From the IMG/VR virus record IMGVR_UViG_3300029845_000007: 64,000 nt of DNA; one strand, given 5' to 3'. The stretch is from a virus. A program made the translations under genes and the position numbers. Positions 16,338 to 59,200 of the stretch are shown here, piece by piece. The stretch's first letter is position 1; each line of letters starts with the position of its first letter. The notes under the pieces were generated by a model, which made no database searches, was not told where the DNA came from, and worked only from the letters and a program-made list of their open reading frames with translations.

Positions 16338-16392
16338 CTGATAAGCGAAATGCTACAACTGATAAGCGAATCCAACCAACTGATAAGCTATT
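16338..16392. repeat. three iteron-like direct repeats [C/A]CTGATAAGC[G/T]A at exact 21-bp spacing
   Basis: Copies start at 16338, 16359 and 16380, inside a locally GC-rich convergent intergenic region. The last copy overlaps the stop of the winged-helix gene. Confidence 0.55.
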
Positions 16393-16903: not shown

Positions 16904-16945
16904 AATTGTTAATTTATAGTTAAAAACTCATTTTCGGCTTCTAAA

Positions 16946-17008
16946 TTACACAGATTTGCGTGTAAAAACAAGCATTACACCTAGTATTTTACACAGATTT
17001 GCGTGTAA
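16946..17008. promoter_or_regulatory. two identical dyad-symmetric operator-like sites TTACAC-AGATTTGC-GTGTAA (16946-16965 and 16989-17008)
   Basis: Perfect 6-bp inverted half-sites with an 8-bp spacer, duplicated 43 bp apart, 40-100 bp upstream of the winged-helix gene start (16903). Confidence 0.55.
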
Positions 17009-17039
17009 TTTGAAATTCGTAACTGACTGATAATGACCG

Positions 17040-17900: not shown

Positions 17901-17964
17901 CCCATAAAGGAGCGTGATTGCTGTTACATCTTCACCTTTTATTTACCATTTAACTTATATCATT

Positions 17965-20996: not shown

Positions 20997-21317
20997 ATGG
21001 ATAAGAAAGAATTTACTAAATTGTTTAAAGAGTTACAGAAGATACAACTTAGTCTATTGTATAGTACTAAACTCTCTAGTGACCTTTATACTAATTGCAA
21101 TCTTAATAATACTTCTTATATTAGTATGTATCTATTTGTTCTTGATATTAATAGAAATATTGATGAAACACATAGTTACAATCTTTATAGCAATGATAGT
21201 ATTGATAAGAATAGAGCTGTTGTAAATGAAATTAAGCAAAAGGTTAAACAATTCACAACTCCTTTAAGGGGGAATAAAGCGAAGCGAAGCGGAGCGTCAG
21301 ATACTCCAATTAAGTAA
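20997..21317 (+). CDS. hypothetical protein
   Basis: 106 aa. The 3' end contains a motif copy plus a GC-box (encodes TPLRGNKAKRSGAS). Confidence 0.4.
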   Translation: MDKKEFTKLFKELQKIQLSLLYSTKLSSDLYTNCNLNNTSYISMYLFVLDINRNIDETHSYNLYSNDSIDKNRAVVNEIKQKVKQFTTPLRGNKAKRSGASDTPIK

Positions 21318-21780: not shown

Positions 21781-22032
21781 ATGATTGTAGATTTAAAACA
21801 ATGTGTTAATCCTGATAGTACTTTTGATGTATATTTTGAAGGACTTAAAGCTGTTATTTCTCATGATTTATGTGTTAATACTTATTATTGTATTATCGTA
21901 GATGTTCATAGTGATAGATGTTGTGAAATTACTCCATTACCTAGAATTATGAATACTGATAAATATAAGATATTCCCCCGTAAAGGAATGTGTTGCGTAC
22001 AGTATAGTGTTAACCAAATAGTCAAACCTTAA
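21781..22032 (+). CDS. hypothetical protein (start moved to ATG 21781; the track ORF 21679 overlaps the upstream gene by 100 nt)
   Basis: MIVDLKQCVNPD... begins immediately after the previous stop. Confidence 0.35.
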   Translation: MIVDLKQCVNPDSTFDVYFEGLKAVISHDLCVNTYYCIIVDVHSDRCCEITPLPRIMNTDKYKIFPRKGMCCVQYSVNQIVKP

Positions 22033-32151: not shown

Positions 32152-33285
32152 ATGCGTAGAGGAATAAGACAAGACTTAACAAAAGAGTTTATATTATCTA
32201 AGGTTAGTCAGGAAATGATTATGGCTAAGTATATGGGTATACCTGTATCAGTAGTTAATGATTGTGTTGAAAACAATGTTCTTATATGTTCTCCTTTACG
32301 TGTTGATAATCATCCAACATTTGGTTTTGCTTTTAATAAGAATCATAAGCTAAAAGCATGTGATTTTAATGGTTCTTTCTTTGGTGACTGTTTTGATTTA
32401 GTAGCTTATGTTCTAAGTTTTAAAACTGGTCGTCATATAAATGTTGCTAATAAGGCAGATTTCTATTATGTATTAAAGCACATAGCTTATACTTTCCGTA
32501 AGATAATATATGACGGAGAAGTTGACGATGAGAATGAAATCTTGCTTAAACAAGTAATATCTAAAATCAAAGCAAGTAAACCTATTATTGAAGTAGCTAC
32601 TAGAAGTTGGAATAATAACGATAAGAATATTTGGAAAAAATGGGGAATTGGTCTTCATTGGCTTAATACTCATTTTGTCTATCCTGTTGACCAAATGTAT
32701 ATTAATAGATATTGTCAACCTATTCCTAAATATAAGTATAAAGAATCTGACCCTTGTTATGCTTATGTTACTGGATTAGATAGTAATGGTATCTATAATA
32801 TTGAATGTTACTTTCCTCTTCGAGATAGAAGTAAGGGAGAAGTAAAGTTCATAACCAATCATAATGGTCTAGTTGGAATACTTAATCTTGATAAACCTAA
32901 GTATGATATAATTATTATAACTAAATCATATAAAGACAATCTAGCATTAAGTAATTGGTTACATTCCTATCCTTTAAGGGGGAATTTGTCAGAGTCTAAA
33001 ATAGGAGTAATTAATGTTACTTCGGAGAGCTACGTTCTTAAAGATTACGAATATAATTGGCTTCAATCTAAACTAAATGACGGTGGAATACTTGTTTCAT
33101 TCTACGACTGTGACCTAACTGGTGTACATGGTGCTCGCAGGTTACGTAAAGAATATGGTATTATACCTATTATTATTCCTAGAAGTTATGGAGCTAAAGA
33201 TTTCTCGGAGCTAATTACTATGTATTCTAAAGAAACTATTAATTTATTCATAGAACAAACAGAATCATTATTTGAATATGATTAG
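32152..33285 (+). CDS. DnaG-like DNA primase (zinc-binding domain plus TOPRIM)
   Basis: CSPLRVDNHPTFGF...C..FG-like zinc finger (compare DnaG CPFHxExTPSF). TOPRIM DxD in LVSFYDCDLTGVHGA. Confidence 0.7.
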   Translation: MRRGIRQDLTKEFILSKVSQEMIMAKYMGIPVSVVNDCVENNVLICSPLRVDNHPTFGFAFNKNHKLKACDFNGSFFGDCFDLVAYVLSFKTGRHINVANKADFYYVLKHIAYTFRKIIYDGEVDDENEILLKQVISKIKASKPIIEVATRSWNNNDKNIWKKWGIGLHWLNTHFVYPVDQMYINRYCQPIPKYKYKESDPCYAYVTGLDSNGIYNIECYFPLRDRSKGEVKFITNHNGLVGILNLDKPKYDIIIITKSYKDNLALSNWLHSYPLRGNLSESKIGVINVTSESYVLKDYEYNWLQSKLNDGGILVSFYDCDLTGVHGARRLRKEYGIIPIIIPRSYGAKDFSELITMYSKETINLFIEQTESLFEYD

Positions 33286-33814: not shown

Positions 33815-34301
33815 TTACGAATTAGATGAATCAGACATTAGGATGATTAGACATAACTGTAATACTAAAGGTATTCCTAATACTATTGCTAATTATCTTC
33901 ATGAATTAGATTTACCTAATTATCCTTATATTCAGACTATTCATTTCAGATATAAATGGATAATGGCAGCTCTCTTATATTTAGGATATGATAAAGAATC
34001 TCTTGAAAAGATTCATGAAGCTAATCTTAAATATGAAGAAACTCATCCTCCTATTATTTACGAAAAGAAAAGAGGTGGAACTAATAAGACTAGTGCTAAA
34101 CGAATTACTAAATCTTCCCCCATAAAGGAGTGTGGATTTGTTGCATCTTCTTCTAATGGTGGAAAATCCGTTGCAACTCCTGTCAATTCTAAAGTTAGAA
34201 TTATTGTTATTGAAACTAATAAGTCTATGATTATTGATAGAGAAGTTGCTATTGGTCTTATGCGTGAACAACCTAACAAATATAAAATTGAAGAACTATG
34301 A
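33789..34301 (+). CDS. hypothetical protein
   Basis: 170-aa ORF. Contains a motif copy (encodes SSPIKE). Confidence 0.4.
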   Translation: MKLDTNPFSYELDESDIRMIRHNCNTKGIPNTIANYLHELDLPNYPYIQTIHFRYKWIMAALLYLGYDKESLEKIHEANLKYEETHPPIIYEKKRGGTNKTSAKRITKSSPIKECGFVASSSNGGKSVATPVNSKVRIIVIETNKSMIIDREVAIGLMREQPNKYKIEEL

Positions 34302-35930: not shown

Positions 35931-36133
35931 GTTGTTCCCTTGTAAAGCTAAGTGTTACTACTATATATTCTGATTGTGAGATAAATCGTTAGCTTATACT
36001 CAAAGAGGACTGTCGGAACGTATAAGAAACAACACTCCTTTATGGGGGAAATCAACGAGAATACCCGATATTTTGTCTCTGTACGATTTACTATGCCAAC
36101 CTTAACAACTATACTATTTTTGTCTTACGTTTA

Positions 36134-37997: not shown

Positions 37998-38771
37998 ATG
38001 GGAAATAGTTTATTTAGTATTAAAGCCGAGTTGCAGGATATTATCTTGCAACTCGAAGAAGGTGAAGCAACAGATGAACTTGTTGCAAAACTAGGTATTA
38101 CCGAAGATAATCTTAAAGATAAGATTGCTGATTATCTTCAAGTAATTAAACGTTATCAATGTGACGTTAAAGAATGTAATGACGAAGTTGCTCGTGTTAA
38201 CCAAATTAAGAAAACAAGAGATAATACTCTTAGACGTCTTAAAGATGCTGTTCTCGAAGCCGTTCTTATGTTTGGTTCTACTGGTAAGTCAGGTAATAAA
38301 GTTATTGAGGGTAGTACTTATAAAATCTATTCTCGTAATACAACTACCACTGTATTAGATGATATTCGTATCTCTGATATTATCCGACAGTTTGTAGATA
38401 TTGTTACCGAATACTTAGCGAGTACTGAAATTAAAGAAAGTCTTAGTATTGAGTATCTTGCTCGTATTATTAGTGCTCACATGAAAGCTGAAACTTCCCC
38501 CATAGAGGAGTCGGAAGATGTGCGATCTCCTTTCGTCGACGTAACTACTGATGATATATTTGCTATTGATACTGAAATAACTATTAATATACGTTTATCA
38601 GAACTAGCAAATGCTACTAATTTCAATCTTGTTCAATGGATTGGACAGAATCCTCATAGGGTAGAATTTAAATCTTCTACTAGTAAATCAGCTGTTGCAG
38701 CTAATTTAGATTTAAATGCTGACCTTACTATTGCTAAACAAGTACCTAATACATCATTAATAATTAAATAA
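37998..38771 (+). CDS. hypothetical protein
   Basis: 257-aa ORF. Contains a motif copy (TSPIEES). Confidence 0.45.
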   Translation: MGNSLFSIKAELQDIILQLEEGEATDELVAKLGITEDNLKDKIADYLQVIKRYQCDVKECNDEVARVNQIKKTRDNTLRRLKDAVLEAVLMFGSTGKSGNKVIEGSTYKIYSRNTTTTVLDDIRISDIIRQFVDIVTEYLASTEIKESLSIEYLARIISAHMKAETSPIEESEDVRSPFVDVTTDDIFAIDTEITINIRLSELANATNFNLVQWIGQNPHRVEFKSSTSKSAVAANLDLNADLTIAKQVPNTSLIIK

Positions 38772-42639: not shown

Positions 42640-42646
42640 TAGATTA

Positions 42647-42688
42647 GAACTATTAATAGTAGTAATACTGTTGATAGTTCTTTTTTTT
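42647..42688 (+). terminator. rho-independent terminator GAACTAT-(20-nt loop)-ATAGTTC-T8
   Basis: 7-bp stem and an 8-T tract at the end of the plus-strand module. Confidence 0.6.
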
Positions 42689-42746
42689 ATGTTGTACTTG
42701 GATAAAATCAACGTATTAATGATAGTTGTATTGCTGGACTTGCCTA

Positions 42747-42842
42747 CGCTCGCAAAGCTCGCTAAATCCCCCATAAAGGAATGGAATTATAGGTAAACCA
42801 CTCCTCTATGGGGGAAGAAAGCGAGCCGATAGGCGAGCGAGA
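42747..42842. repeat. about 95-bp imperfect inverted repeat built from two inward-facing copies of the dispersed motif, each with a GC-rich box
   Basis: Left arm CGCTCGCAAAGCTCGCTAAATCCCCCATAAAGGAAT. The reverse complement of the right arm is CGCTCGCCTATCGGCTCGCTTTCTTCCCCCATAGAGGAGT. Spacer AATTATAGGTAAACCA. Confidence 0.65.
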
Positions 42843-43273
42843 TATAGTAAAGCTAGTATTAATAATAATAGTTCAAACAATAATACTAACGGCACTGGGG
42901 ATAGTGTTCAGGAAGATGTTCTTCGTTAGATAGAACATTTGGGAACTTTTTGGATATAGTGAGGTCATAGACGGAGTAAATAGTATTCGGCTCTTTTTCG
43001 GGTAGTGAAGCTAAATCAATCGCTATTGACAATCATTCTACTAATCCTTGTAGCTTTGTTTCTATTTATCGTCCGAGGTTTTGCACTAGGGCGGAGACAC
43101 TGCCTAAATGAAATAGTACTTATAAGTACTAAGACTAATCGAGTTCCCTAGCTCTCCACACTACACGCAACTAATCTAATTAGTCAGATAGCAAATGCTA
43201 AATCCCGTACAACAGTCCGAGACGGTAGGTACTTGTTCACTGCAAAGGTAGTAATTATTTTGATATAAACAAT

Positions 43274-43305
43274 AAGTCGGACTACTTTCACAAGCAATCC
43301 GACTT
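43274..43305 (-). terminator. terminator-like hairpin AAGTCGGA...TCCGACTT followed by a U-rich tail, after the giant gene
   Basis: 8-bp stem with a 16-nt loop. On the minus strand it is followed by AUUGUUUAUAUC. Confidence 0.45.
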
Positions 43306-43334
43306 TCCTATGAGTTGTAATATTAAGTAGTTAG

Positions 43335-46300
43335 TTATTCTTCATCTTCATCAGTAATCATATTAGCAACAACTTGACCTAAACCACTAAACGGACTACT
43401 ACGTACTTTATAGTAACTATTATTAGCACCAAGTCTTTCATGTTTTATAATCTGATTAACTAATGGTACTTGTTTAAAGAAATTTACTACAAGTTTATTT
43501 TCATCTGAATAGCTTCCTGAATTATAATATAAATCATCAGGATTACCAGTAATAATATAGCTACAAAGTGCTCCTAATAATCTAAGATTATCTTGCGCAA
43601 TACTTAATGCAGCAACAGGTTGACTATATAGTTTCTTACCTTCATTAGCTAATCCCCACGGAGTATATTGAATAATTTCAGACATTAGACGGTCAGCACT
43701 ATATAAGATATAGTCAGCTACTTGTGTAGAATCATCATCGTCATCTAGCATTAATTTTCCTACTACAAATAGTGCTACTGCTTTAGTAATAGCTATCCAT
43801 TCACCTAAGCATCTACGAATATTGGCTTTATCATATTCAGGAAGAATGTTATAATAAGTAGTAAGATTAGCTACAAAATCTGCATAACCTTTAGCAATTC
43901 CTTGAAGAGTACGAACAGCTTGAAGTTCGTTACTATCATTAAGTTCGTAGTATTTCTTAAATGGCATTGCTATAAACTCACCTAAACTAACATAAGTTCC
44001 TTTACTAATAGATTCTCTAGTTTCATTATATATACCGTCAAAGTGACCTAAACGATAACCAAAACGTTTTTGGAATCCAGGAACTAAGTGTTTATGGAAC
44101 TGCATTAGTAAAGCTCCCCACCAAGATTGTTGTAATTGATTAGCACCAATCTTATCATAGATACCATGTATTTGATGATTAACTGATATAACCTTATTAC
44201 GGAAAGCTGCAATATCATTATTAGTAAGACCACTGTCAGGTTTAAGAATAGCAACACCATTTTTCAAGATAAGACTTTCTCTAAAAGAAGGATGATTCTC
44301 GAACTTAGTTCTTTCTTCTTTAGTATCTTCTTTATAGGTAGCTTTAAACTCTTCTCTTATCTCTTTAGGAACAGAGCGTAAGAAGTCAGTTATTATATCA
44401 GCTTTAAACTTAACATAACGTTCTTTCTCAATATATGATTCAAGTACTTTATCTCTGAATGTTTCATATTTAGTAACTAATTCAGGATTATTCTTACGAA
44501 GAACTTTAAGCAATGCTTCTTCTCTAAGTCCCATAGCAAACTGTTCAAATGACATTACTTTATTCTTACCATTAACAGTAACAACTCTATGAGAATGAAG
44601 CATAGCTAACAATGTAGCGTTCTGCATATAATGTTCACCTGCGGTTTGTTGGATAAACAACAGATTTTCTAATTTACCCATAGGATTGTTACCTTTACCA
44701 TAACGTTCTGTTATCATATCAGATTCAATAACATTGAATAATCTAATAATAGCATTAGTTTCGTTATTAGTAGTTTCATTATAAGCATCAGCTAAATAAC
44801 TACCTACATTCTGCATCCATTCGTTCTCACCTTTACGGAAGTCTTTGTATTTAAAGAATTGTCCGGCAGCCATTTCCATTTGTATCTGTGTCTTACCATA
44901 TAATACGTTGGCAATACCACCAGTAACGTTTAACATCATAAACTTACTAGATACCATATTACGCATAACACGAGATACTTTAGAACGAGTACCTTCATCC
45001 ATTTCAAATTCATTAAATACTAACTTACGAACTTGATTCTCAAAGTGCTTAACTATATTAGAATCATCACTTTTAGTTGTGCGTATTTCTTGTTTACCAG
45101 TAATTCTACTAAGTAATCTATTATCCATAAGTTTATCGTTAGGATTTCTCTTAATAATATCCATATTACGTAATTGATTACTAGTAATTTTAGCTAATCT
45201 AGCTATATCATTACGAGTATTAAAGTTATACATACTATCAATAAATGAATTAAGTCTTTCAAGAACATTAGGATTATTACGTTCTACATTTTCCTGTGCT
45301 CTTTGCTTACGTAACTCATTGTTCCTAGCTTGAGTTTCACGAACATAAGCTAGATATTCATCAGTAGTTTCACCTTCTTGTTTCTCACGAATAGGAAGAA
45401 GTTTAATCTCTGATAAACTATGTAACATAGGAGCATTACTAAATCTTTTATATAGATTAAGCTCTATATCAGATTTATTAGGAGTATCATACCAACCATG
45501 ACTGCGTTTAAAGTCTTGCCAATAATCAGTAAATCCTTGATGTGGTTGTTCAACAGCTTGATTAGGTAAATAACCACGATTAATATAAGCACGACTACGT
45601 TTATCTTTAACAAGACTATTAAGTAGATTATCTACTTCATTGTATAGTTGTTGCTGATAGTTATTCATTCCATAATATTTATCATTGCGATATTTATTAG
45701 TAGAAGGTTGTAACTTAACTTCATCATAGTTAGGATTCTTGTACTTGTCTTTAACTTTAGTTTCTAACCATTTATATTTAGGACTATATTCCATATTATT
45801 AGCTTCGTCCTTAACTATCATTTGTCTCCAAATAGCTAATGGTTCGTATTCTTTAGTAATAGGATTAAGCACATGATTCTCGTTATACCATTTATCAAAT
45901 ACTACTTTACCCATTTTGTTCATAGCCACATACATAGCTTCGTAGTATACAGTATTGATATAGCTTATATGCTCATCTAACCACTTTTGAGCTTGTTCTT
46001 CATTTGGCTTAACTCTACCAACAGCTGCTGCAAACATTTGCTCTTGATGTTTCTTTAAGTTAGCTATTTGCACTTCTGTAAACTTAGTACCGTCAATAAC
46101 ACCTGTTTCATCATACTTACCGTATGCCATAGTACGAACAAAACTATCAAAAGGATTGCCAGCACGAGTATCCATATAAGCTTTCTTTAACTCATCTAAG
46201 AACTCACCTTTTAACTTATAGTCAGTATTAGCTTTAAGCCATTCAGCTGATTCTCGATAAGTTTCAGATGTTTCAGGGTATTGAAGTCCTTCAATAGCTT

Positions 46301-49300
46301 GTTTATAACGAATAGTAAAAGCATCCTTAGGTCTGTTCTCTTTATACTTATTATTAAGTTGACGACGAGACAATAGATAATTATTAACTGCATTAGCTTC
46401 ATAATAATTCTCTTTGTAATTACCGTCAACATCAATAACAGCACGCATTTCAGTAAGTTCACTTTGAATCTCGTTAAGACGTCTTTCATTTTGAACAGTA
46501 AGAGTACTATAATCATTGTCAATCATTGTACTTAATATATCTCCTTCTTCATGCAATAGCTTCATTAACTTAACATAAGTTTCAGGGTATTTATTAAGTA
46601 ACTGGTTTGTATTGTAGTACTCTTGATACATCTCTTTAACGTATTCACGTTCTACATTATCTATTAAGAACTTCTCTAACTCATCTTTAGCTTTCTTATA
46701 TATTAAACCGTCTCGACCGTTCGGGTCTTCGATTTGTGCCAGTTTTACAGCCTCTTTTAGCGACCTTAATTTTTCAGTGAACGTTTCATTATACGGCAGC
46801 AAAAGATTGCCATTTTCGTCCAAAATATCGTTCAGAGACACGTCTATACCGTTGTTTTTTGCGTCCTCAATGATAGCCGATATTGCCGAAGTAAACGCTA
46901 TCTTTTTGTCTCTAGCTTCTATTTCACTAGCTCTTAACTGATTCATCATTTGTTTAAGAACTATTTGAACTATTGGTATATGTGTCTCTTGACTATCAGC
47001 TAACCAAAACTGGAAGAAGTTTTCATCTTCAAATGCTTCTGTAATGCTAAGCATATTAGATTGTACACGAGGGTCACTAGAAAGACTAGTAATGTAACTA
47101 TCGAAGTACATCTTAGTACTACGTTTAACTACATTATCTAAGTCTTTGATACGTTTGAACTTATCCTTAATCTGTTTAAGCATATCATTAGTTCTACGCA
47201 AACCTTCGATTTCTTCTTCTGTTTCACTTACAGTATAAGCCTCATCAATATTATAAGGTTGAATAGCTTCAATAATAGAATAGTCTTCTACAAATCTATT
47301 AATATCATCTAGGAACATCTCATAACGAGTACGTAATGTTTCATCCTTTAACATAAGGTCGAATAACTTCTTATTAGTTATACTCCATTTCTCTTGAACT
47401 ATCTTGTTACCATTTTCATCTAACTTATAAGTTCCGTCAGGATTAGTAACATAAGTAGTAAAGAAGTTGTGTATATCAAATAAGAAATCATCAATACGTC
47501 TATTAGTATAACCATTGATAATTCTCAACGCTTGTTCACGTAAGTTATCATTTAACTTAGTAGCTGTATTAGAACGTAAATCAATAGCTGTAAATGAACG
47601 GAAAGCATCGTTTAATGCAGCTTCTTCTACATTAGCATTACTACGTTCAACACTTTCAATAACACGAGATATATAATCATTTATCTCTTTATCATTATCT
47701 ATCAATGCAGATTCAAGTATATCTTCATTAATAAAGTTATCTTCTGTCTGAACACGAATAATGTTATTATTAGCAAATTTATCTAATCTAGCATTTTCTT
47801 TAACTACTTGAGTAATGGCATTACGTCTAGGGAATTGTAATTGACTAACACTATTAATAGTTACTTTCTTACTATACATATAGTCAGGAGTGAGACCAAC
47901 AGATTTAGTAGTTACACGACCTAAGTTAGTAACAATATAAACATTACCTTCCTTTTCGTATCTAAAATATCCACCAGCTCTAAAACCTGTATTATCTACA
48001 ACAGTTTGTAAAACAGGAACAAAACCAATACCATTAACATTAACATCTTCAATAGTTTGATTAATGCTAGCTTTAAGTTGAGCATAATAAGGAGATTCAG
48101 AATTATCTGATTTCTTCTTTCTAAGTTGAACTTCATTAGCTTCTAACTTAGTCATAGATGTTTGTAGTCTCTTGGCTGCAATATCAATGTTATTACGGTC
48201 ATTAATAAGTTTACGGATATTACCGTAATTCATATTAGGAGCTACAACAACATAATTAGTAATACCAACAGCTTCAAGAGATTCAATAGTATCTAGTATG
48301 ACCTGATTATCAGTAGCAGCAATAATGTATCTACGAGAAGTATCAACTTGTTGCTCCTTTATGGGGGAAGTTAAGACAGTACTATTAGGAAACGCTTCTT
48401 CTATTAATAAATTAGCACCAGCTTCAAATGCTTTAGGAAGAACTACAAACTTACGAATATCAGAGTTCATAGCTATATTAATAGAACTAATAAATGCAGG
48501 GTCATACTGATTAATAGAAATTTCTTCTAATATATCTAATGGAAGAAACATTCTATTATTATCAGGATTAACACTAATTTCTCCAATTTCATTCTGTTCT
48601 AATGGATTAGTAGGAAGCATATATACAACATCATTATCATATACTAGCTTATATAAACGTAGAACTTTATTATTATCATTAGTTTTAGCGTAATGACGAT
48701 ACTTACGATTATCTTCACTACCAGTAATCATTCTGCGTTCTTGTGCTTCTTTAAAACTAAGCATACCTACACCAAGTCTATTGAATACTATCTTATTAGA
48801 TTCTTTGTACTTCTTATTCTCAAATGTAAGTACATCAGGATTATTAGGATTAGTTCTAAAGAATAAGTCACGTAATTTTTCTATTGCCTTATCATCATTA
48901 CTAAGTCTTTCATAGGTTCCTGTTTCACTACCGTATTGAACCATACTATTAATGGCTTTGTCTGAATCATTAATAATATTAGTAGCTGTTGAAACTCCAT
49001 TATCAGAATCAATACCAGTATCCTGTCCATATAAAAGCTCAACAGGAATAATCTTACTAACTGTTCCGCCTTTAAACTTATAACCTTCTACTACCATAGA
49101 ATATCTTACTAAATCCATAGCTGTAAGTTTAACGAAAGGATTATTACTATGCCAAGCATTACGAAACATCTGATATTGAGATTCAGTAGATATAGTACTA
49201 TCAATAATAGATATTCTATCATAACTATTGCGACGACCTTTATACTCCACATTTAGATTTTTAAATAGATTATCATCCGAAGTATATCTTTGAATCAATA

Positions 49301-52300
49301 CTACTTTATTTGCAGGAGACAACTTCATAAATGCTTCTACATTCTTTTCAGACATATCAGACATATCGAAGCTACCTATTACATTAGTATAACCATATAA
49401 TCTAGCACGAGTATTCTGTTGACTGCTAATAAGATTCAAATTATAACTAGGAATAAACTCATTATCGCTTCTAGTTATAAATCTATTAGTATTAACAAAA
49501 TTAGATTGTGCTTGACTCATATTAATTATGAAACTCTCTAACTGTTGAATAGTTTGTAGATTACGAACATCGAACTTACTAACTAACTCACGGAACTGTG
49601 GAGTTTGAGTTTTGAATATTTCACTATCACGAATAATCTTTTCAGTAGCTATACAGCTATACTTCAGTTGATAATATAAAGAAGGATATGCTGATTCTGA
49701 ATCATCCTGATTAATATCGTTAATAGTATTGAAACTAATCTTAGGATAAATAGCATCTATAAGATATTTATTACCTTCTTCTGTAACAGCTTTAAGAACA
49801 GGATTACCTTTCTTAATACGAGCAATATTGTTATTCTTAATATCAGTAATACGATTAATTACATTATCAATTTCGTTAGCAGATTTACCAGCACCAAACT
49901 TATCACTAGTAATAACCATCATGTTAGTATTGATTTGGTCACCTATCTCTTTGAAATATTCAAATGCCCTTAATGCTTTAATCTGATATATAAGATTATC
50001 TGTATTATTATAGCTAGTACTTTCTACATCATCTTTAAGATGTTCTCTTAATTCAGTTACTCGTATTCCTTCTTCGAGTAATTCATTTTCATTGATAGTT
50101 ATTCCTCTAGCTTCAAGCATTGCTTTAACATCTTTAAGACGAGTTTTCTTAGTAATACTATTAGCTGGAATACCAACAGTCTTAGCCAATCTTATATACA
50201 TATCTCGTCTCAATCCTATAAGGGGATTAAATCCAGTTTCACCGAATACATTATCATTAGCATTTTGTCTAGCAATAAGTTCGGTTATTACAGGTTGATT
50301 AACGAATAAGATAGAAGTTTCATAGTTTGCACCACAATCAACAATAGACTTATATACATCGAAAGTATATAAATCAACATTAGGTACACCACCTTCTTTT
50401 ACACCGTCAAGAATAAGTGCAGTAGTTTCAGAAGAGTAAGGAGTAATTAAACGATTATCTATATTAAGATTATCGTAACTCCAACCTAACTGATTATGGT
50501 CTACCATTACTTCTTTTCCACTTCTAGTTACGTCTCTGAAACGTTTTCTTAATTTTGCTTGAGCGTCTTTGGCTTCTTTCTCTGTATTATATGTATATAC
50601 AAACCTAAAACCACCATGAGCACCGTCAATAATAGTCTTAGCTTTATTACCAATAGAGGCAAAGTTGTCACGATTAACAGAAATAGCTTTAAGACGTGCA
50701 CCGGACATATTAGCATCACGATACCAATTTTGAGCAATTACTGAATTAATATTACGATAAGTCTCTGACAAACCTTCAAAGATATTACTCTTTGCAGCTT
50801 TAATATCTTCAAAATTACTAGACGATAAGTTCTCACCAATAGATACTGGTAGATTCATTATATTAATAAATGTATCTACTATTTTATTGTTACGAGCATC
50901 ACGAGTATTTTGTTGAGCTACTGTTAATTGACTAAATTCTTCAAGAGACATAGCTCCTACTATTTCAGCTCTTGCTTGAATAGTTTGTTCTAATCTAGCT
51001 CTACGAGTTTCATCAGCATAATCAATAGCTAGTTGTTCAGCGTTATCTTTTACATTTTGATAAAATTCTCTTTGTTCATTAATAACAGATTGAATATTAC
51101 GATACTGTTGTGCAAACTTAGCAACATATTCATCATTAGCATATTCACTTTCATAAAAGTCCATCTTACTTACAATAGCGTCTACTCTTTCACCAAACTT
51201 TAATTCTTTTGATTTAAAAGTAATAGTAAGATTATCTTTTATTTCTCTTGGAAGCTCAGCCCATGTTTCATCTGTTTCAGCTATTAAATCTCTAACTTGG
51301 TCAGTTAAGAATTTATCATATTCTTCATTAGCTTTAAGAACAGTTTCTCTTGCAGCTTTACGAGCTTCTTTAAATTCTTCTTTAGTAAATTCAGAATTAG
51401 TAGCTTTACGAGTTTCTTTATCTATTAAAGAATTAACATATCCTATATATCTACGATAAGTAGATACTTCGTCTTCTCCTCCTATATATTCGACTTTATG
51501 AGGTTTACCATTTCTATCAAAATAAGCAGTATGATAAATACCATAGATACTATCAATATCAAAGTCAGCACCGGTCTGTAATACCCATTCATCAGGAACA
51601 ACAATAGTAGAACCTTGAGATTCATCTAATAAACCTACTACTTTCATTACTGCTACTGATTGCTTACCTTCTGTTGGAATACGATAACCAATCATAGTAT
51701 CTAGTCCAGCATTTTGTAAATCTTTAAGAGTAACTTCCTTAACTAGATTACCTTCTGCATCATAAGTATTATAAGCTTTTACCATCCATTTAGGTAACAA
51801 TATCTCTACTATTTGACTACCGTCTTTATGATACGTTAGTTTACGTCCAAGAGAATAACCGTGTTTCTCTTCTACTCTAGATTGCATCAAATCTCTTAAA
51901 TCACTACGACCTGATAGTTCGGTCATGCCAATATCTGAAACTTGACTAGCATGAAATCCTGGAAGTACTTGTCGAGTAACACGATTAGTAAATATACTAT
52001 TTACAATATTTTCTATCTTGCTACGAACTAGATTAGTCCAAGCAGGCATATAAGGCAATCCAGTTTCAGGATTTATTTCAGCATACTTACGATAATTACT
52101 GTCTAATCCTCTACGAGTTAACTCATCCTTAATAAGAGATATAAACTGATTATTATCTATCTTAGCTTGATTACCTTCATATACTACATTACCTTTAGCA
52201 TCAATCTCTACACCAATACGAGCAGCAGCATCTTTAAAACTATCTTGAATATTAGCAGTAAAGTTGTCAAAGAAATCTTTAATAAGAGATTGACCTTCGG

Positions 52301-55300
52301 GAGTATTACCAATATTATCTATTAGTTTCTTAACAATTTGCAGTCCTGCCTTATTTTCACCATCCATGTGTTGAGGAATATCTTGCTGGGTATAAAGATT
52401 AGAATACCAACCAGTTTTATACTTAGTTTGAATATCCAAGTTAAACTGTTTCAACCTTTCTTTAGAGGGGAATTTCCCATGAGAATCCCAAAATTCTAGT
52501 ACTCTATTAGTAGTAGCTTTTTCAGTAGTAGTAAAGTTAACCTGACCTATATTATTATCAGTCATATATTTAGCTAAAGCAGCAAGTTCACTATTGCCTA
52601 AGAATCTAGGTATAAGTACGAACTCTGCATTTTTAATCTGAATAGGATTAGCTAACTTAGCATCATTATCTATTTCTAAGTCATAATAGAAGTTCTTTTG
52701 AACTTGTATCTTCTTAGATAATTCTCCTAACTTAACATTGTCAATAGGCTTACTTTCGTCATAAAGAGCTTCAATTAAATCTTTATAACTATCATACTCT
52801 CCACGTAGATACATTCTACGAACAAATTCATCAAGAGTAATAAACGATTGAGCATCTGTTACTTCTGACTTATCTTTAGAGAACTGTTTAAGTATAAAAG
52901 CTCTAGTCTCTTTAGATACATTAGCTATATCTAATTGCTTCTTTAAATCATCGAGAACTTTACCGCTACTTTGAACATCTTCAAGAGTAATATATTTGAA
53001 ACTACTATCTATACTAATAGTCTTATTAGGAGCTACTGTTATATCTCCCAAATGCTTTTGTACATTATATAAATCATATCCTGCATAAGCTAATCCTCCG
53101 GCTTGATATTCTTTGTTACGTTTAATAGTATCACGAGAATCTTTATAATATGCTTCATCTCCGAAGAACATATCATTTAGATTATTATATTGAATCTCAT
53201 AGTTAAGTACCATTTCTGCAATGAAAGCGTTAAATGATTCTTGACTAGCATTCTTATATTTATCTACAAACTCTTTATTAGAACTGTATTTAGCGACAGC
53301 TTCTTGTATTCTATAATTGATATAATTATCTATATAATTATAAACTGAATTACGAAGCTCACCAGTAAGTCTAATATTATATTCTCCGTTCTCATCTTGT
53401 ATTAGCGATATTTCACTATTCTTTCCCCCGTAAAGGAGTGAGAATACGTCACCTCCCTCGAATAGCCAATTCATATCCACTGTTTTAGCTGTCTCACTAT
53501 TATAGTTATTAAGATTCTTAACTTTATCAATAAGTAGACTTCTAAATTTAAATACATTACCAGTTGGTTTACCATTGCTATCAAGAATACTTTTACGATA
53601 ATGATAGTTAAGTCTAGCTTCTGATTTACGTAAATCTTTAAACTCTTCTTTTATCTTAGGTTTACCGTTCTCATCTGATACAATAGTTACTACTCCATTC
53701 TCAACAGTTGTCTCAAATAAGAAGTTAATAGCTTGCGCCATTTCTGCGAGTTCTTTAGCATAAATATTAGCATAAGCTACATATATAGGATGTCCACGAT
53801 TAATAGAGCTGTTAGCATTAAATAGTCCAGTATAATCTAACTTATAACTATTAAATACGAAAGTCTTAGGTGCATCAGAAGGAGTTTGAGTAAAGAACTT
53901 AGATTTCTTAACTCCTTTAGTCATCTCATAATTGTCACCATTATTAGCGTATTCATTAAGCGTAATAATATCCCACTCAAGAGCATTAATATCTTTATAA
54001 GATTTAGCCTTTCCTGTTACTTCATTACTAACTCCGTTATATAATTGTGCACCAAATTCACGATAATATTCAGTTAGTTTATAACCAGTATCTGTAAGAC
54101 GAAGTAAACCTGGGACTATTTTTCCATTAGACAAAGTTTTCTCAATAAGAATATTACTATATCTGTATTGAGGAATATTAGTAAATTTAACTAAGTAATC
54201 ACGTAGTTCGGTATTACTAACAGGATTATCATTATAACGATTATCGTTAATTCTTTCAAAGAACTTACTTATATAGTTGTTTTTTAGAATATCACTAACT
54301 AGATTGTTCTCTGCATTAATACTATTAAATTCAGAATCTACTATCTGATAATCTTTAAATCTATTAGATATACGATTGGCTATATTATTAGCATAACCAC
54401 CTTTGTATTGTAGTTGAGATTTATCAAAAGGAACTACCACATATTCTTCATTCTCTTTAGTTTTAGCATATTCACCTGCATAATAGATACGTTGTGCTTC
54501 ATTATCTATCTTTAATAGATTAGTCGCCTTACCTACTACTTTATTAAACTCTAACAAATCATCGACAATAGAAGAGATATTAGAAAGTTGGTTATCACCG
54601 AAGTTACGAACGTAGTTAACAACACCCTGTCTATTGATGCCGAAGTTATACTTATTAAAAATTGCAGCAATTTGCTCCGTAATTTCTTGGATTTCATTTG
54701 TGTTAGAATTTTTTAGTGTAGATAATCTGTTTTTAAGTTCGTCTAATACGGCAATATCATTAGCCATAATAGAAGGATTGTGAATAAGTGAATCGAAACT
54801 ATTAAGTATTTTGTTTTGTAGATTAAGTTTAGGAAAAGTATTACGATTCTTAGTAACCACATTAGAACCGTCTTGACTATAAACTACTTCATTACGTTCC
54901 CAAATAGATTGTTTTAGTTGAGTAAATATCTTATTTCTCATCTGAACATTGGCTTCGTCTTCTAGTAAACGTGCAGCATATTCTAAATGAGATACTTCTT
55001 TAAATCTTGCAGCAATAGTATGGAAACTCTCTATCATAGCTTCAACACTAGAGAAATTACCATAGTTATTAATAGCTTTAAAAGAACTAGAAAAAGTAGT
55101 ACTTTCAGCCATGCCTGAATAAGTATTATTAGAAGTATCAGGCTGTTCATTTATAAAACTATTACTATTTGTTTTAGGTAAACGAGCAAACCATTCTTTT
55201 ACTTCTTTGCTAACATTTTTATCTATATCTTTTCGTTGGTCAGATATTTCAGACCAATCAGCACGAAGAGCAGCAATAGTTTCTTGGTCATCTTGACGAG

Positions 55301-56241: not shown

Positions 56242-59200
56242 TTAACTACATACGAAACTAAGCTCACCAGTGTCAAACAAATGCGTCACAATAGCCTTTT
56301 GTCGATTATTCAATCCCTCAATCAGACTATCGAAATTATCGACTTGACGGTAGTTATCACTTATACTACTATCTAAATCTAAGTCTATATCAGGAATATC
56401 AAATACATCATCAGTAGGAACGCTAACATCTTCCTCTGCTCTATCAAAAGTATCGTCATGAGTAACAGTAGAAGTACTAGCTGTATCACTAGTTTCTAAT
56501 CCAATAGTAGATAAACGATTACGAACTTCTCCAAGTAATGTATTATCTATTTGTCCTATCTTACCTATTAATTCTACTAAAGCATCTACTATTTTAGTAA
56601 ATAGGTTGTTTGATTCAATAGTAGGATTAGAATCATACTTAATTCTAGCTAGTAATCTAGCAAATGTGCGATTAGTAATAGCTTCGACTACAAACTCTTC
56701 AATAGCAACAGCTCTAGGTTTACTACTATTTAAGAAATCTCCATACTCATCTATTAGACGAGAATCTTGATTAATAAAGTTAGCAAACTTATCGTATAAG
56801 TCTCCGAATGATTGTTCTATATTAGCACGTTCATCATTAAGTAGATAATGTACACCTTCATGTATAAGAGTAAGAACTCTACGTTCAGGAGCAAGACTAT
56901 TAAAACGATTACTAAGAGTAATAGTATTACCACCAGCGACTATTCCTGCAAATCTACCTTTTTCACCTACTGTTTCAATATCAGGACTAAGTTTAATACC
57001 AGCAGATTCTAATGCAGATACAACAGATAATAGATTAGGATTATCAGTATTAGCTTGTGCAACTTCCATAAGAGTACCTATTTGAGGAACACTGTCTTGA
57101 CTAGCAAGTGGGTCAGGTACAACTACGGGAGACACAGTTTGTTGCCCCTTTATGGGGGAAGTAGCGGCGTTAGCCGCGTCAGTACGACTAGCATTGCGAC
57201 TAGGATTCATAAGGGTAATAGTCCTATTATAAACATCACCAACATAATTAAAGTTACTAACAATATTACCTTTACTATCAGTAACACTTCCTAAATCAGT
57301 AACCAATACTCCGTCCTTAGCTACAAATTCTTCATAACTACTATAACCAGTATCAAACCATTCATCTTGAAGTATATTAGGTATCTTAGCTTGTAACTTA
57401 CCGCCTACTACTCTAAATAAACTAGATTCACCACGAATAGCCGAATTAACAACATTACGAGTAAGTAAAGCATATACTTCTTGTAACATTTTACTAAAGT
57501 TACCATGATTATTAGTAGGAACAAAACCATTAGGCATACGAGCCATAAGTCTTCTAGGTTTAAGTTCACCAGGAATAGAGAAAGCTACATTTCTATCTTT
57601 AAGATTAAAATAAATAGTTGGTGCAACTCTATTAATAGGTATTAAAGCATGACCTCTTACTTCATAACCATACAATACTTTCTGTTTACCTATATATTTA
57701 GATACTTCTTCTAATAGTTGAGTATGAAGATTTTCATTGCCTTGTAAAGTAGCATCTAATAAAGAATGAAGTAGTTTATCTAATCCTTCATTAAACCTCT
57801 TAGTATATTCAGTAGCACCAGTTTCACTATTACTCATAGTATTCTCACGACTAGGAACTGCAATAAGTCTTCCTTCTGAATCTTTAATAGTCATACCTAC
57901 TACATTTCTAGGAATACGACTAGCCGCAATAATAGTATTGGTTTTAATATCAGCTACTCCACCGTCAACTCCTACTACTAAACGATAACCGTCAGTTGCT
58001 TCACTAGTAGTAACATCTCCAAACTTACGATATATAGGATTACCTTGTTTATCTTTAGCATAAATAACACTACCTGAACTTGTACGTCCAACAACTAGAC
58101 GTTTCTTTTTAGACTTAGTTTTACTAATAGAGGACTTTAAGTTATTAATGTCCGTATAAGACTTCTTGAGTTTATTCATCCAATTAGTTAACGAATCGTT
58201 AACAATGGTACTAAAATCAGACTGATTAACATTAAGAGCATTATTAAAGAATATAATACTATTAAGATGTCTAATCCTATCTAATAGATTAGTTTGAGTA
58301 TCACCGAATAAACTAGTTAGATTCTTCCAGTTCTTATTCTCTTGTAAAGCATTAAGCTGATGTCCGAATGTTCCTTCAACTTCAGGGTTATTACGAACAC
58401 GATACAAACGACGTATATTATTAAGTGTTTGTACAAACTCTTTAGCACTTTCATCTTCATTACTAATAATAGATTGGAGTTGCGTTATAAAATCTATATT
58501 ACCATTTCTAACAGTGTATCTCCAACCTTGATTTATAACTTCAACGTTCCCATTATTATAATTAATTTTAGGAAACTCACCTATCTTAATTCCACGAGAT
58601 TTAACGATAAGATTATCGTTTTCATCTAGTTCTACATTTACTGTATCATTAGTCTTTAACTGACCGATACGAGAGTAAACCTTACTATCATTTAGATTAA
58701 CTAGATTAAAGAAGTAACCATTATCTTTAGTATTCTGTCTATTCTCTGCAATAGCATTTTCTAATGTCTTACTTGCAGACTGTATAATATCAGAAGGCGT
58801 CTTAACTTCTGTATCAACATTAACTATCTTACCGTTTATTATTTGACGATTAGCTAAAACTTTAATATCATTATACAGATTAATAGCTCTAGGATTAAGT
58901 TGTTGTAAATATATCATCATATCATTAAGACTAGTAAAAGTTTTACCTTCTACTTCATTGCCTTGTATCTGATTATACAAGTCTATGATAAGATTGATTT
59001 CTTCTATACGTTGACGCTGACCTTCTAAATCATTATCAGATATAGCTGATTCAAGAACTGTATCATCAGTTCTAGTATCTTCTTTCTTAGAAGTATCTAC
59101 AACAGTAATATCTCCAATAGCAATAGCTGCATTAAGTTCTTCAATAGTGACATCAGCAATTATATTGCCTTTAGCATCTAATCCGTCAATACTTACATTT

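Follow-up and report, generated by a model that had tools for sequence, protein, structure and literature searches.

The stretch of DNA analysed here (the window, 64,000 nucleotides) belongs to a Jahgtovirus (crAss002-like) phage and is approximately 94% identical to crAss002 and cr107_1. At a 0.7-kb junction between positions 42640 and 43334, the replication-gene module on the plus strand converges with the virion-RNAP and structural module on the minus strand. The giant gene that ends at the junction (43335..56054, minus strand) codes for a homologue of the RNAP catalytic subunit crAss002 gp33 with a length of 4239 aa. Rather than a single element, the junction combines four parts that are independent of one another: the terminator of the plus-strand module, a GC-rich stem-loop, a polymorphic cassette slot and the minus-strand terminator of the giant RNAP gene.

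A preliminary description of this locus had reported a convergent junction with two opposed terminators. Both were found by a terminator scan and both fold better than shuffled sequences. The terminator of the plus-strand replication module (42646..42689) consists of a 16-bp stem, a 4-nt loop and a T8 tail (stem 42646-42681; −20 kcal/mol, z −6.3), and it is kept in all Jahgtovirus loci. The terminator of the giant virion-RNAP gene (43274..43305, minus strand), which is also the right edge of the cassette slot, has a 14-bp stem with a minus-strand folding energy of −20.6 kcal/mol (z −6.2); the plus strand folds more weakly (−10.5 kcal/mol). The base pair 43277/43302 of this stem shows a compensatory change from T-A to C-G in about half of the 26 distinct relatives, and the T-run following the minus-strand stem is ATTGTTTATA. 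With a stem-loop followed by a T/U run, 42646-42689 (plus) and 43305-43274 (minus) are both Rho-independent terminators by definition.

The elevated GC content that had been described for the region is also present: it is 0.39-0.41 over 42700-43300, compared to 0.23-0.33 in the flanks. The cumulative GC skew peaks at the junction because the gene orientation, and with it the coding strand, switches there. As the preliminary description had stated, ORFs are lacking in the junction: the longest reading frame has only 48 codons and is without homologue, and TAA, TAG and TGA stops are found in all six frames, which speaks against a coding gene in the standard code as well as against one with TAG or TGA reassigned. 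No tRNA or tmRNA was found, and a search of the whole window against Rfam at the gathering threshold yielded no match. With a relaxed threshold (E ≤ 10), the region 42500-43450 gave only sub-threshold matches that we take as chance: a Rhizobiales sRNA (E 0.01) aligned to the terminator stem 43274-43305, and miRNA/snoRNA models aligned to the large hairpin (E ≥ 0.16).

The GC-rich stem-loop and the cassette slot

Downstream of the first terminator lies a conserved leader, TGTACTTGGATAAAAYCAACGTA...GCTGGACTTGCCTA (42690..42744, plus strand), which is present in all 42 loci covering this position, whichever cassette follows. It leads into the GC-rich stem-loop (42745..42842), which was delimited by sequence inspection, repeat search and folding. 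The inverted repeat of about 95 bp (approximately 100 nt) made of two motif copies, as previously described, is indeed located here; its arms were recovered by the repeat search as 42767-42784/42798-42815 (18 nt, 89%) and 42757-42772/42811-42826. Both arms are built from the same composite repeat, (GCTCGC)x2 followed by TTCCCCCRTARAGGAG. In the left arm two copies of GCTCGC (42748-42762) precede the word TCCCCCATAAAGGAAT (42767-42782); after the loop (42785-42797) the right arm carries the reverse complement of the word, CTCCTCTATGGGGGAA (42801-42816), and two copies of GCGAGC (42821-42838). Secondary-structure prediction, as had been suggested for this region, showed that a stretch of 107 nt folds as one long hairpin with −50.4 kcal/mol (z −7.1) as plus-strand RNA and −60.8 kcal/mol (z −9.3) on the minus strand. 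None of the 200 shuffled sequences folds as well, and the outcome is the same with DNA parameters.

Similar hairpins occur two to three times per genome. In Carjivirus communis the equivalent hairpin is located between gp41 and gp42, shows G-C/A-T exchanges and is preceded by a stretch homologous to the leader. Equivalent hairpins also separate the N4-gp49-like gene from the giant RNAP gene in other crAss-like contigs with protein identities of 26-60%, and one of these copies is followed by TTTTTATAT. Hairpins of the same kind are also found within the structural operon (crAss002 28708/28744) and between ordinary genes. Among 59 distinct hairpins, the R1 position of the stem is an A-T pair in 31 and a G-C pair in 26; the R2 position is mismatched (A·C or G·U) in approximately 17%, with no consistent strand. 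Pairing in the hairpins is therefore not strictly maintained. The hairpin at 42745-42842 is not accompanied by a T/U run, since the stem is followed by AGATATAGTAAAG on the plus strand and GTAGGCAAGTCC on the minus strand, and it was not reported by the terminator scan. Because this run is missing and a good terminator is located just upstream, a terminator role of the large hairpin is unlikely here; hairpins with a homologous stem in other crAss-like genera do carry a T-run. The large hairpin was also considered as a host-borne repeat, and a scan of 185,579 bacterial and archaeal genomes, made with the hairpin, gave only scattered, unrelated taxa and no multi-copy host family.

The stem-loop borders the cassette slot. 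In related genomes four types of cassettes (A-D) occupy this slot between the same flanks, and the hairpin is kept with all four. Type A, found in this genome, consists solely of an ORF-free block of 410 bp (42873..43282). In type B (crAss002) the block is accompanied by the gp34 gene, the stop codon of which abuts the block. Type C is a RepL-like replicon cassette (PF05732) that directly follows the hairpin and brings along its own promoter and two iterons, and type D contains an O-like HTH gene (HTH_36/"replication initiation O-like" protein). Of 46 related contigs, 30 carry the block; no contig of type C or D has it. Comparison of the cassette types places the left junction of the slot at 42843..42872, with breaks at approximately 42848 (type D), at approximately 42856 (A versus B and C) and at 42872/42873 (blastn). 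Types B and C have a promoter that belongs to the cassette and not to the hairpin, and no canonical Bacteroides promoter was found at the left edge of the block. The cassette junctions are located 6-30 nt from the large hairpin and at the far terminator, that of the giant gene. Of the recombination site proposed in the preliminary description, this part is retained, but the sites of the word in general do not coincide with identity break-points. Variable segments adjoin hairpins in another crAss-like genus as well.

A second variable locus of the window (16386..17140, minus strand) harbours a RepL-like replicon cassette identified by its match to PF05732. It comprises a promoter, TATATTTG (17119-17112), two 20-nt iterons (16946-16965 and 16989-17008) and an ORF for 171 aa (16388-16903), and it is 73% identical to the type C cassette at the amino acid level and 74% at the nucleotide level. 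No RepL gene is located within 42640-43334, so that the junction of this genome does not hold a RepL replicon module; crAss002 lacks the RepL cassette altogether and has neither a RepL nor an O-like gene. In Carjivirus communis, the slot beside the giant gene holds RepL (KP06_gp43), the last plus-strand gene facing the giant gene, and the type C RepL-like gene is 28% identical to Carjivirus communis RepL. RepL-like replicon modules are optional, mobile cargo within one genus, being located at one of two loci or absent. This cassette polymorphism bears on the phage-plasmid lifestyle that has been proposed.

A dispersed word in crAss-like genomes

The word found in both arms of the hairpin is not confined to the junction. 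Its core, CCCCRTARAGG, has 20 matches in the window (0.6 expected), 28 in crAss002 and 32 in Carjivirus communis, the prototype crAssphage, that is, approximately 30 per genome. Nine-mers of the word head the list of over-represented sequences in all three genomes, which represent two subfamilies (z 20-70). The word is 12-17 nt long and occurs in both orientations, and most copies are solitary and located inside genes. About one quarter of the copies have an upstream (YCGCT)n or GCGAAGC-like element, and beyond approximately 17 nt nothing is conserved around most copies.

Outside the junction, plus-strand copies are located at 4425..4435, 12415..12425, 21976..21986, 28055..28065, 34118..34128 and 38498..38508, at 10409..10419 (with a GC-rich upstream element), at 364..374 (one mismatch) and at 59458..59468 (one mismatch, with a GC-rich upstream element). 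Minus-strand copies were found at 27022..27032 and 36037..36047, with one mismatch at 32971..32981 and 62494..62504, with one mismatch and a GC-rich upstream element at 21261..21271, and with a GC-rich upstream mini-hairpin at 57147..57157. Two further copies lie in the giant gene: a sense copy encoding SPIKEQQ (48356..48366, minus strand) and an antisense copy, LLYGG (53426..53436, plus strand), which has an orthologue in the giant gene of Carjivirus communis. A solitary composite copy, GCTCGCAAAGCTCGCT plus TCTCCCCCATAAAGGAG (17878..17915, plus strand), is located in a non-coding stretch of about 1 kb beside the RepL cassette; in its GC-rich part it matches the left hairpin arm exactly.

The orientation of the word is mixed or alternating along the genome and not polar; crAss002 has 12 sense and 16 antisense copies. 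Chi-like sites are words of 5-8 nt that are co-oriented with replication or with DNA-end entry and are also abundant in the host. The frame that encodes S-P-I/V-K/E-E is used by nearly all sense copies. Within them the variable R positions alter the amino acid and the third codon positions are invariant. Each of the 20 sites of the window has its orthologue in crAss002, including those with flanks of only 76-84% identity; identity between the window and crAss002 is 93% for the word and 86% for the flanks. One site is common to the giant genes of two subfamilies, although their proteins are only 32% identical. These comparisons show that the word is kept by selection on the nucleotides and not on the encoded protein. 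Intergenic hairpins made of inverted word pairs recur at a shared syntenic position across several crAss-like genera. Hidden hairpins at solitary copies were rejected, since the local folds there are ordinary. When the window was compared with crAss002, the word sites showed no significant coincidence with break-points of identity (p = 0.14), and a role as general recombination hotspots is therefore not supported.

Two alternatives address the word and the hairpin together. The hairpin might be a replication origin, or part of one, or an initiator-binding locus, with the adjoining slot as a replicon-module slot and the block serving an initiator-independent function, e.g., one activated by RNA or transcription. 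The initiator genes speak for it: types C (RepL-like gene and iterons after the hairpin) and D (O-like protein) place them in the slot, and both RepL genes of Carjivirus communis are preceded by inverted word pairs with GC-rich flanks (28077/28173 and 95745/95865). An origin directly upstream of the first RepL was predicted with Ori-Finder (PMC10983915), and in the window the composite word copy is located about 730 nt from the RepL cassette at 16386-17140. However, the word is found mostly as solitary copies inside genes, comparable hairpins occur in the structural operon and between ordinary genes, and crAss002 has the hairpin yet no RepL. The block contains neither iterons nor an AT-rich unwinding element and is GC-enriched, and the GC-skew peak is not origin-like, though it is confounded by gene orientation. 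Taken together, we regard an origin at this locus as unlikely. A variant in which the block is an RNA-primed origin alternating with initiators was dropped, since this genome carries a RepL cassette elsewhere and crAss002 contains neither a RepL nor an O-like gene.

Alternatively, the word and the hairpins could be a selfish GC-rich palindromic mobile element that has spread through an AT-rich genome, also in frame into genes, and has no function for the phage, comparable to REP/BIME, Rickettsia palindromic elements or the GC clusters of yeast mitochondria. The word is GC-rich in a genome with 31% GC, the element found upstream of about one quarter of the copies suggests a longer ancestral unit, copies inside genes are read as short hydrophilic or Q-rich linkers, and hairpins adjoin cassette junctions. 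Against this, no presence/absence polymorphism was seen: all 20 sites are orthologous in surroundings that differ by 6-24%, and one is conserved between subfamilies. In addition, the lack of conservation past approximately 17 nt around most copies, the better conservation of the word compared to its flanks and the missing multi-copy host family in the scan made with the hairpin (185,579 genomes) argue against a mobile element, which makes this explanation improbable.

The 410-bp block

The mean pairwise divergence of the block is 2.6%, compared to 12.3% at fourfold-degenerate sites of the adjacent gene. This low diversity could partly reflect recent spread by recombination. Counting of variable columns revealed an ultra-conserved core (43022..43177), with variation in 4 of 156 columns; outside it, 41 of the 254 remaining columns of the block vary (Fisher p = 6e-6). 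The core contains TTGACAAT..TTCTACTAATCCTT..TAGCTTTG at 43026-43058, and its 14-mer 43036-43049 is also found in Carjivirus, just 3′ of the hairpin there. The core is followed by a small variable hairpin, GAYAGC-loop-GCTRAAT, and a degenerate word copy, AAATCCCGTAC (43186..43210). Its positions 43189/43200 show a compensatory change from T-A to C-G in 8 of 26 distinct sequences, and the 10-mer GCTAAATCCC of this region also occurs in the left arm of the large hairpin.

Outside the genus the block was not found. It has no similarity to plasmids, matches only crAss002 and cr107_1 among other phages, and an exact 21-mer scan of IMG/VR returned the same genus only; nhmmer searches gave no homologues in more distant loci or elsewhere in the window. 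The terminator scan identified no terminator within the block. The Bacteroides-type promoter motif TAnnTTTG occurs at 43051 (plus) and 43243-43250 (minus), and one per strand is the chance expectation.

Hairpin and block together (0.6 kb) might also form one large structured non-coding RNA, a reading that we consider about as improbable as the mobile element. The region has no ORF and is GC-enriched, a stretch of 645 nt folds with z −5.4 (plus) and −6.7 (minus), the core is ultra-conserved, and long, highly transcribed intergenic regions have been reported for the crAss-like phage phi14:2 (10.1101/2020.03.07.982082). But the fold signal comes wholly from the hairpin and the terminators; the block alone is close to shuffled sequences (z −0.93 on the plus and −0.95 on the minus strand). 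Wobble-compatible substitutions do not single out a strand for such an RNA, as the variation fits the consensus folds of both. Of the 134 predicted pairs only two, both local and outside the core, show double changes, in an alignment of sequences that are 96-99% identical and therefore of low power. Rfam gave no match even at E ≤ 10 beyond chance alignments, and the two elements are separable, since a gene separates them in crAss002 and only the hairpin is found in types C and D. The structured ncRNA considered in the preliminary description is thus narrowed to the hairpin itself.

A GTG-initiated ORF of 48 codons (43005-43151) lies within the core and is probably not a gene. If translated, it would yield a membrane peptide of 48 aa, e.g., a small toxin or a holin-like accessory protein. 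In favour of such a peptide, the ORF coincides with the diversity valley, a single hydrophobic helix followed by a basic patch is predicted, and neighbouring genes also encode small membrane proteins. Against it stand the GTG start, the lack of a PHROG match and of any relative in approximately 5.8 billion clusters, none of which shares even three 5-residue words, and the ease with which hydrophobic ORFs arise by chance in T-rich sequence. Moreover, only 1 of 25 fourfold-degenerate sites varies, and conservation is therefore at the nucleotide level; a peptide gene is improbable.

A packaging (pac) site or replication terminus, both candidates in the preliminary description, is the least probable of all and is not supported: the convergent junction with its GC-skew maximum and the reported pac-type headful packaging of crAss002 (PMC8042965) would fit, but the block is missing in at least 13 closely related genomes or contigs, complete ones included and several of 93-97 kb, and being dispensable it therefore cannot be an essential pac, ori or ter site, while the hairpin, present in all relatives, is of a multi-copy type, the terminase genes are approximately 35 kb away and the skew maximum is explained by the coding-strand switch.

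Proposed function and comparison with known systems

The reading that we prefer, with a chance that we put somewhat below even, is that the junction is a mosaic and neither a terminus nor a packaging site, with the word as a genome-wide recognition sequence, the hairpin as a boundary and cassette flank and the block as an accessory part. The word would be recognised by a sequence-specific factor, most likely encoded by the phage, and could act as a "self" tag or as a dispersed operator. Two head-to-head copies in an intergenic spacer would form a double site, able to extrude as a hairpin or cruciform or to fold in RNA, and such double sites may mark the limits of operons and cassettes. With a T-run behind it, the same stem would act as an operon terminator in other crAss-like genera. 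The hairpin and the far terminator might provide the homologous flanks between which cassettes are exchanged, because both are conserved in every genome. For the block we assume an accessory role in the slot, as a non-coding gene or as regulatory DNA. It would most likely be transcribed on the plus strand, as would have to be the case in crAss002, where it comes immediately after gp34 without an intervening terminator.

A more far-reaching version, possible but less probable, extends this to the crAss-like phages of the Intestiviridae including the prototype. They would share a genome-wide cis-code, a 12-17-nt word (CCCCRTARAGGA core) repeated approximately 30 times in each genome, kept by nucleotide-level selection even in essential genes and read by a putative phage factor. 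This factor might be a global silencer in a carrier or plasmid-like state, as with stoperators, or might read the word as a tag of self DNA that serves in packaging, in discrimination by nucleases or in site-specific nicking. The hairpin would then be a high-affinity double site at the boundary of the replication module and the block an accessory ncRNA gene alternating with RepL-type replicon cassettes.

Among the viruses of the human gut, crAss-like phages are the most abundant, and crAss002 is cultivable. The word bears on how these phages control their genomes and persist without lysogeny, and it offers a concrete, testable handle on a putative DNA- or RNA-recognition system. We found no description of the word in the searchable literature on the word itself and on crAss hairpins, origins and ncRNAs; a genome-wide cis-code in crAss-like phages may be previously undescribed. 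For annotation, the locus is a warning that a "non-coding junction" can be a mosaic of unrelated parts rather than a single element.

Several known systems resemble parts of this arrangement. The two terminators are of the classical Rho-independent type, whereas the large hairpin differs from it by its long GC-rich stem without a U-tract on either strand here. As to the cassettes, RepL modules are known from phage P1 and prototype crAssphage (KP06_gp43, gp88), and a RepL or RepL-like gene occupies the slot adjoining the giant gene in Carjivirus communis and in type C, respectively; the slot of this window differs in having only the ORF-free block and no initiator gene, with the RepL cassette at 16386-17140 instead.

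Repeated stem-loops at gene boundaries, like the hairpin here, are also formed by REP/BIME elements and T4-type PeSL. PeSL flank hyperplastic regions and give short homologies for modular shuffling, as the hairpin and the terminator might do at the slot, but the junction hairpin carries no promoter. REP and PeSL are extragenic, and REPs are associated with a RAYT transposase. In contrast, the crAss word is non-palindromic, mainly intragenic and positionally stable, and with intragenic copies and 20 of 20 sites orthologous it has neither the extragenic location nor the insertion polymorphism of REP/BIME or MITE-like elements.

In its distribution the word is similar to the DUS of Neisseria and the USS of Pasteurellaceae, which tag the chromosomes of naturally transformable bacteria and are recognised by their competence machinery. 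Both share a core word of 10-12 nt with a longer weak context, massive over-representation, occurrence in both orientations, in genes with a reading-frame bias as well as between genes, and conservation at orthologous positions. DUS/USS also form close inverted pairs that give intergenic hairpins or terminators, which for the crAss word was seen in related contigs. The likeness is one of distribution only. The crAss word belongs to a lytic or carrier-state phage without an uptake process, and phages are not known to have a DNA-uptake process.

The stoperators of cluster A mycobacteriophages (L5, Bxb1) are an asymmetric word of 13-17 bp with approximately 25-35 copies per genome, conserved within the lineage; in L5 they are bound by one phage repressor that silences the genome globally. 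The crAss word is likewise asymmetric, with similar length, copy number and lineage conservation. Stoperators are, however, mostly intergenic and in one orientation to transcription, whereas the crAss word is mostly intragenic with orientations of about 50:50 and thus lacks the intergenic, single-orientation arrangement of the L5 type. Phages of the crAss-like group are not known to have a repressor. Global silencing similar to that by stoperators would be an attractive model for how this phage family persists over long periods.

Architecture of the convergent junction

The DNA around the junction at 42640-43334 (approximately 0.8 kb) shares 94% identity with Bacteroides phage crAss002 (MN917146; Jahgtovirus, Intestiviridae) and with cr107_1; no other match was found among 50,697 phage records. 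The left neighbour is the final small gene of the plus-strand replication module (42460-42639). The right neighbour is the stop of a 4239-aa gene on the minus strand (43335-56054), a homologue of crAss002 gp33, which is annotated "RNAP catalytic subunit" (termed here the giant gene).

A preliminary description had reported two opposed terminators, an inverted repeat made of two motif copies, a raised GC content and the absence of ORFs, and all of these were found again. An independent consensus scan recovered the plus-strand terminator (16-bp stem, 42646-42681, followed by T8) and a second terminator hairpin on the minus strand (43274-43305), which folds with −20.6 kcal/mol on the minus strand and with only −10.5 kcal/mol on the plus strand. 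A compensatory T-A to C-G exchange is present in the latter in about half of the relatives. According to secondary structure prediction the inverted repeat is a single long hairpin (42745-42842) with −50 kcal/mol (z −7) on the plus and −61 kcal/mol (z −9) on the minus strand, and none of 200 shuffles folded as well. The motif copies proved to be two inverted copies of a signature word of the phage family (core CCCCRTARAGG), with a GC-rich (GCTCGC)x2 element in front of each. The GC content of the junction is 0.39-0.41, compared to 0.23-0.33 in the flanks, and all reading frames are closed, stop-codon reassignment included. Searches covering the junction revealed no tRNA and no Rfam family. The junction is a mosaic of four parts, namely plus-strand terminator, hairpin, cassette slot and minus-strand terminator; this architecture is close to certain.

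The right outer arm of the hairpin (42821-42838) occurs among relatives as two alleles with three coordinated differences. Allele GCGAGCCGATAGGCGAGC pairs with the invariant left arm; allele GCTAGCCGTTAGGCTAGC mismatches it and forms its own perfect 7-bp local hairpin.

Word-pair hairpins and the genome-wide word

In Carjivirus communis an equivalent hairpin occupies the syntenic position, flanked by gp41 (N4-gp49 family) and gp42. It consists of CTCCCCGTAGAGGATGGAAT ... ATTCCATCCTCTACGGGGAG with a 71-nt loop, and two A-T pairs of the Jahgtovirus stem are exchanged for G-C in its stem. IMG/VR, scanned for the pattern, yielded 74 stretches, which include, besides Jahgtovirus, many contigs of approximately 50-135 kb, often with two to three hairpins apiece and with proteins that share 26-60% identity with window proteins. 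There too the hairpins are located between an N4-gp49-like gene and the giant gene, showing that several genera have word-pair hairpins at this one module boundary; one hairpin per pair, followed by TTTTTATAT, is an operon terminator. In 59 distinct hairpins, which are phylogenetically related and therefore represent non-independent events, the first R position is an A-T pair in 31, a G-C pair in 26 and an exception in two; the second is mismatched in approximately 17%, the strand being inconsistent. Scanning bacterial and archaeal genomes revealed no host repeat of the hairpin form. The pattern also matched eight unrelated viral contigs of 8-83 kb (L079, L094, L099, L110, L113, L122, L124 and L125) with CCCCATAAAGGGATAA..TTATCCCTTTATGGGG adjoining an ordinary terminator. 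These encode no protein similar to window ORFs of at least 150 aa and are probably chance or convergent matches.

The window contains 20 matches to CCCCRTARAGG (up to one mismatch; 0.6 expected), with the extended consensus TTCCCCCRTARAGGAGY. There are 28 copies in crAss002 and 32 in Carjivirus communis, the latter of the form ACYCCCCGTRGAGGATGGA, and an unbiased 9-mer census places these words at the top of each of the three genomes (z 20-70). About one quarter of the solitary copies also have a (GCTCGC)x2-like GC-rich element upstream; a fold check found no local structure at solitary copies. Most copies are intragenic, with sense and antisense in similar numbers. Sense copies are almost always read in the frame S-P-(I/V)-(K/E)-E, in which both variable R positions are non-synonymous and the third codon positions invariant, a codon pattern opposite to that of protein-level constraint. 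The word is deeply conserved: each of the 20 window sites has its orthologue in crAss002, including those with flanks of 76-84% identity, and word identity between the two genomes is 93%, versus 86% for the flanks. One antisense copy (LLYGG / ILYGG) is conserved in position between the giant genes of two subfamilies, which encode proteins of 32% identity. Word sites do not coincide with identity break-points (p = 0.14). Adjacent copies tend to alternate in orientation (20/27 in crAss002, p = 0.01; 21/31 in Carjivirus, p = 0.035).

The first 50 kb of crAss001 (Steigviridae; L219, 1-50000) contain no copy of the word. This stretch over-represents a different 9-mer, CTCCAGAAG (13 versus 0.8 expected), mostly on the sense strand and encoding (S/T/A)-P-E-(G/E), which is either a DNA signal or a peptide/codon effect. 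Early promoters of phi14:2 have been reported to lack a common motif, and its middle promoter is sigma70-like and differs from the word (10.1101/2020.03.07.982082). Neither full-text searches for the word nor those for origins, hairpins and ncRNAs of crAss phages returned a description of it; their coverage is incomplete, and a prior description is possible.

The main rival explanation, an origin or initiator-binding role of the hairpins and word pairs, is unlikely. Word pairs adjoin RepL genes in three contexts and an origin prediction has been published, but many word copies lie within genes, hairpins are found within the structural operon and crAss002 has the hairpin without RepL. Close inverted word pairs are also found in intergenic regions, in crAss002 at 28708/28744 and in Carjivirus at 22901/22928, 28077/28173 and 95745/95865. 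The 95745/95865 pair immediately precedes RepL gp88, at a place for which an origin has been predicted. That word and hairpins together form a selfish palindromic element is less probable still; the lack of insertion polymorphism between window and crAss002 speaks against an element that is mobile at present.

The 410-bp block and the cassette slot

The mean pairwise divergence of the ORF-free block between hairpin and minus-strand terminator (42873-43282) is 2.6% across 30 genomes; in the adjacent giant gene it is 12.3% at fourfold-degenerate sites and 5.7% across all positions. Variable columns are scarce in the block core (43022-43177; 4 of 156, versus 41 of 254 in the remainder; Fisher p = 6e-6), a diversity valley as expected of purifying selection or of a recent sweep centred on the core. 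One large structured RNA spanning the whole region is a doubtful explanation, since the strong fold z-scores of the region are due to the hairpin and the terminators and the block alone folds no better than shuffles (z −0.93 and −0.95 for the two strands). Only two predicted pairs covary, both outside the core. A small membrane peptide encoded by the core has slightly less in its favour: a 48-codon GTG ORF with one hydrophobic helix overlaps the core, but it has no relative among approximately 5.8 billion protein clusters and just one of its 25 fourfold sites varies, so that coding fails to explain the conservation. Window positions 12428-12470 and 43024-43060 share an extended similarity (TTGACAAT..(8-11 nt)..CT(T)ACTAATCCT..TAGCT), and the 14-mer TTCTACTAATCCTT (43036-43049) recurs behind the hairpin of Carjivirus communis (L078, 1918-1931). 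A second regulatory motif may be common to these loci.

We gathered 46 related contigs via the C-terminus of the giant protein (91-99% amino acid identity) and compared the DNA past its stop. Four arrangements with identical flanks were found. In type A (this window and others, approximately 24 contigs) the hairpin module is followed by the block and the terminator. Type B (crAss002, six contigs) has the 71-aa gene gp34 with its own promoter inserted between hairpin module and block. The block is replaced in type C (at least nine contigs) by a gene for a 163-aa protein that passes the Pfam RepL threshold (PF05732, 24.2 bits; cut-off 20.3), and in type D (four contigs) by a 182-aa HTH_36 / "replication initiation O-like" protein and a 75-aa ORF. 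The slot begins 6-30 nt past the hairpin and ends at the terminator; the right outer-arm alleles are independent of cassette type. The block of crAss002 begins directly at the stop of gp34, no terminator intervening; judged from this layout, the block must, in crAss002 at least, be transcribed on the plus strand as a 3′ extension.

A 21-mer of the block is absent from the entire type C and D contigs, several of which are 93-97 kb long, and the block is therefore dispensable. Being optional, it is not a cis site that is both essential and unique (pac, cos, sole origin or terminus); this removes the pac/cos-like site and replication terminus proposed in the preliminary description for most of the region and makes a pac site or terminus very improbable. 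The slot beside the hairpin is more convincingly viewed as a hot-spot of accessory cassettes. Our conclusion is that the block, acting as RNA or DNA, is accessory, non-coding and under selection. In L106, a contig of another crAss-like genus, two word-pair hairpins approximately 600 nt apart bracket two small genes (880-2800), and segments just upstream of the second hairpin and approximately 230 nt downstream are exchanged between related contigs (L115, L109, L093), which echoes the cassette exchange in the window.

The RepL-like protein of type C shares 28% identity, across 95% of its length, with the prototype crAssphage RepL, KP06_gp43. There, too, gp43 is the final plus-strand gene facing the giant gene, as already pointed out by Schmidtke et al. 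(PMC10983915). The window itself carries DNA with 74% identity to the type C cassette on the minus strand at 16386-17140, comprising a RepL-like ORF (171 aa, 16388-16903), two 20-nt iterons (TTACACAGATTTGCGTGTAA, 16946 and 16989) and a Bacteroides-type −7 box/promoter (TATATTTG, 17119-17112). Beside it lies approximately 0.8 kb of AT-rich non-coding DNA in which ACCAATAGATTG is directly repeated (17716 and 17764) and the word has a composite copy (17878-17915). This locus is polymorphic too, crAss002 carrying a different 464-bp segment there; 16386-17913 looks like a second variable locus and is a possible origin region. Since crAss002 has no RepL, the cassette is found at two loci and the locus is polymorphic, RepL-like replicons are optional, mobile cargo within the genus. 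The alternation of the block with initiators had been considered as a hint of an RNA-primed origin; this was dropped because the window has a RepL cassette elsewhere and crAss002 lacks RepL. Further along the window a helicase seems to be interrupted (22392-25015): between an ORF resembling the AAA_30/PIF1 N-terminus (22392-22889) and a UvrD_C ORF (24047-25015) lies an ORF with an I-HmuI/NUMOD-like endonuclease domain (23163-24011). An inserted homing endonuclease or intron is a possible cause; the Rfam search of the window gave no group I intron.

Proposed role and related systems

Taken as a package, we tentatively propose, with slightly less than even confidence, that the word would be the recognition sequence for a sequence-specific factor and that the hairpin would be a double site, located where the replication module ends, that could also extrude or fold. 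Hairpin and far terminator would then provide conserved flanks for cassette exchange. The functional part of this proposal is a reasoned guess from computational analyses.

In its distribution the word seems closest to DNA uptake sequences, which are likewise over-represented, present in both orientations, intragenic with a frame bias and found as inverted pairs in terminators; in copy number and asymmetry it resembles the stoperators of phage L5. Both likenesses draw on established knowledge of those systems. The exchange of cassettes between hairpin and terminator flanks would proceed in a manner similar to that of the PeSL elements of T4.
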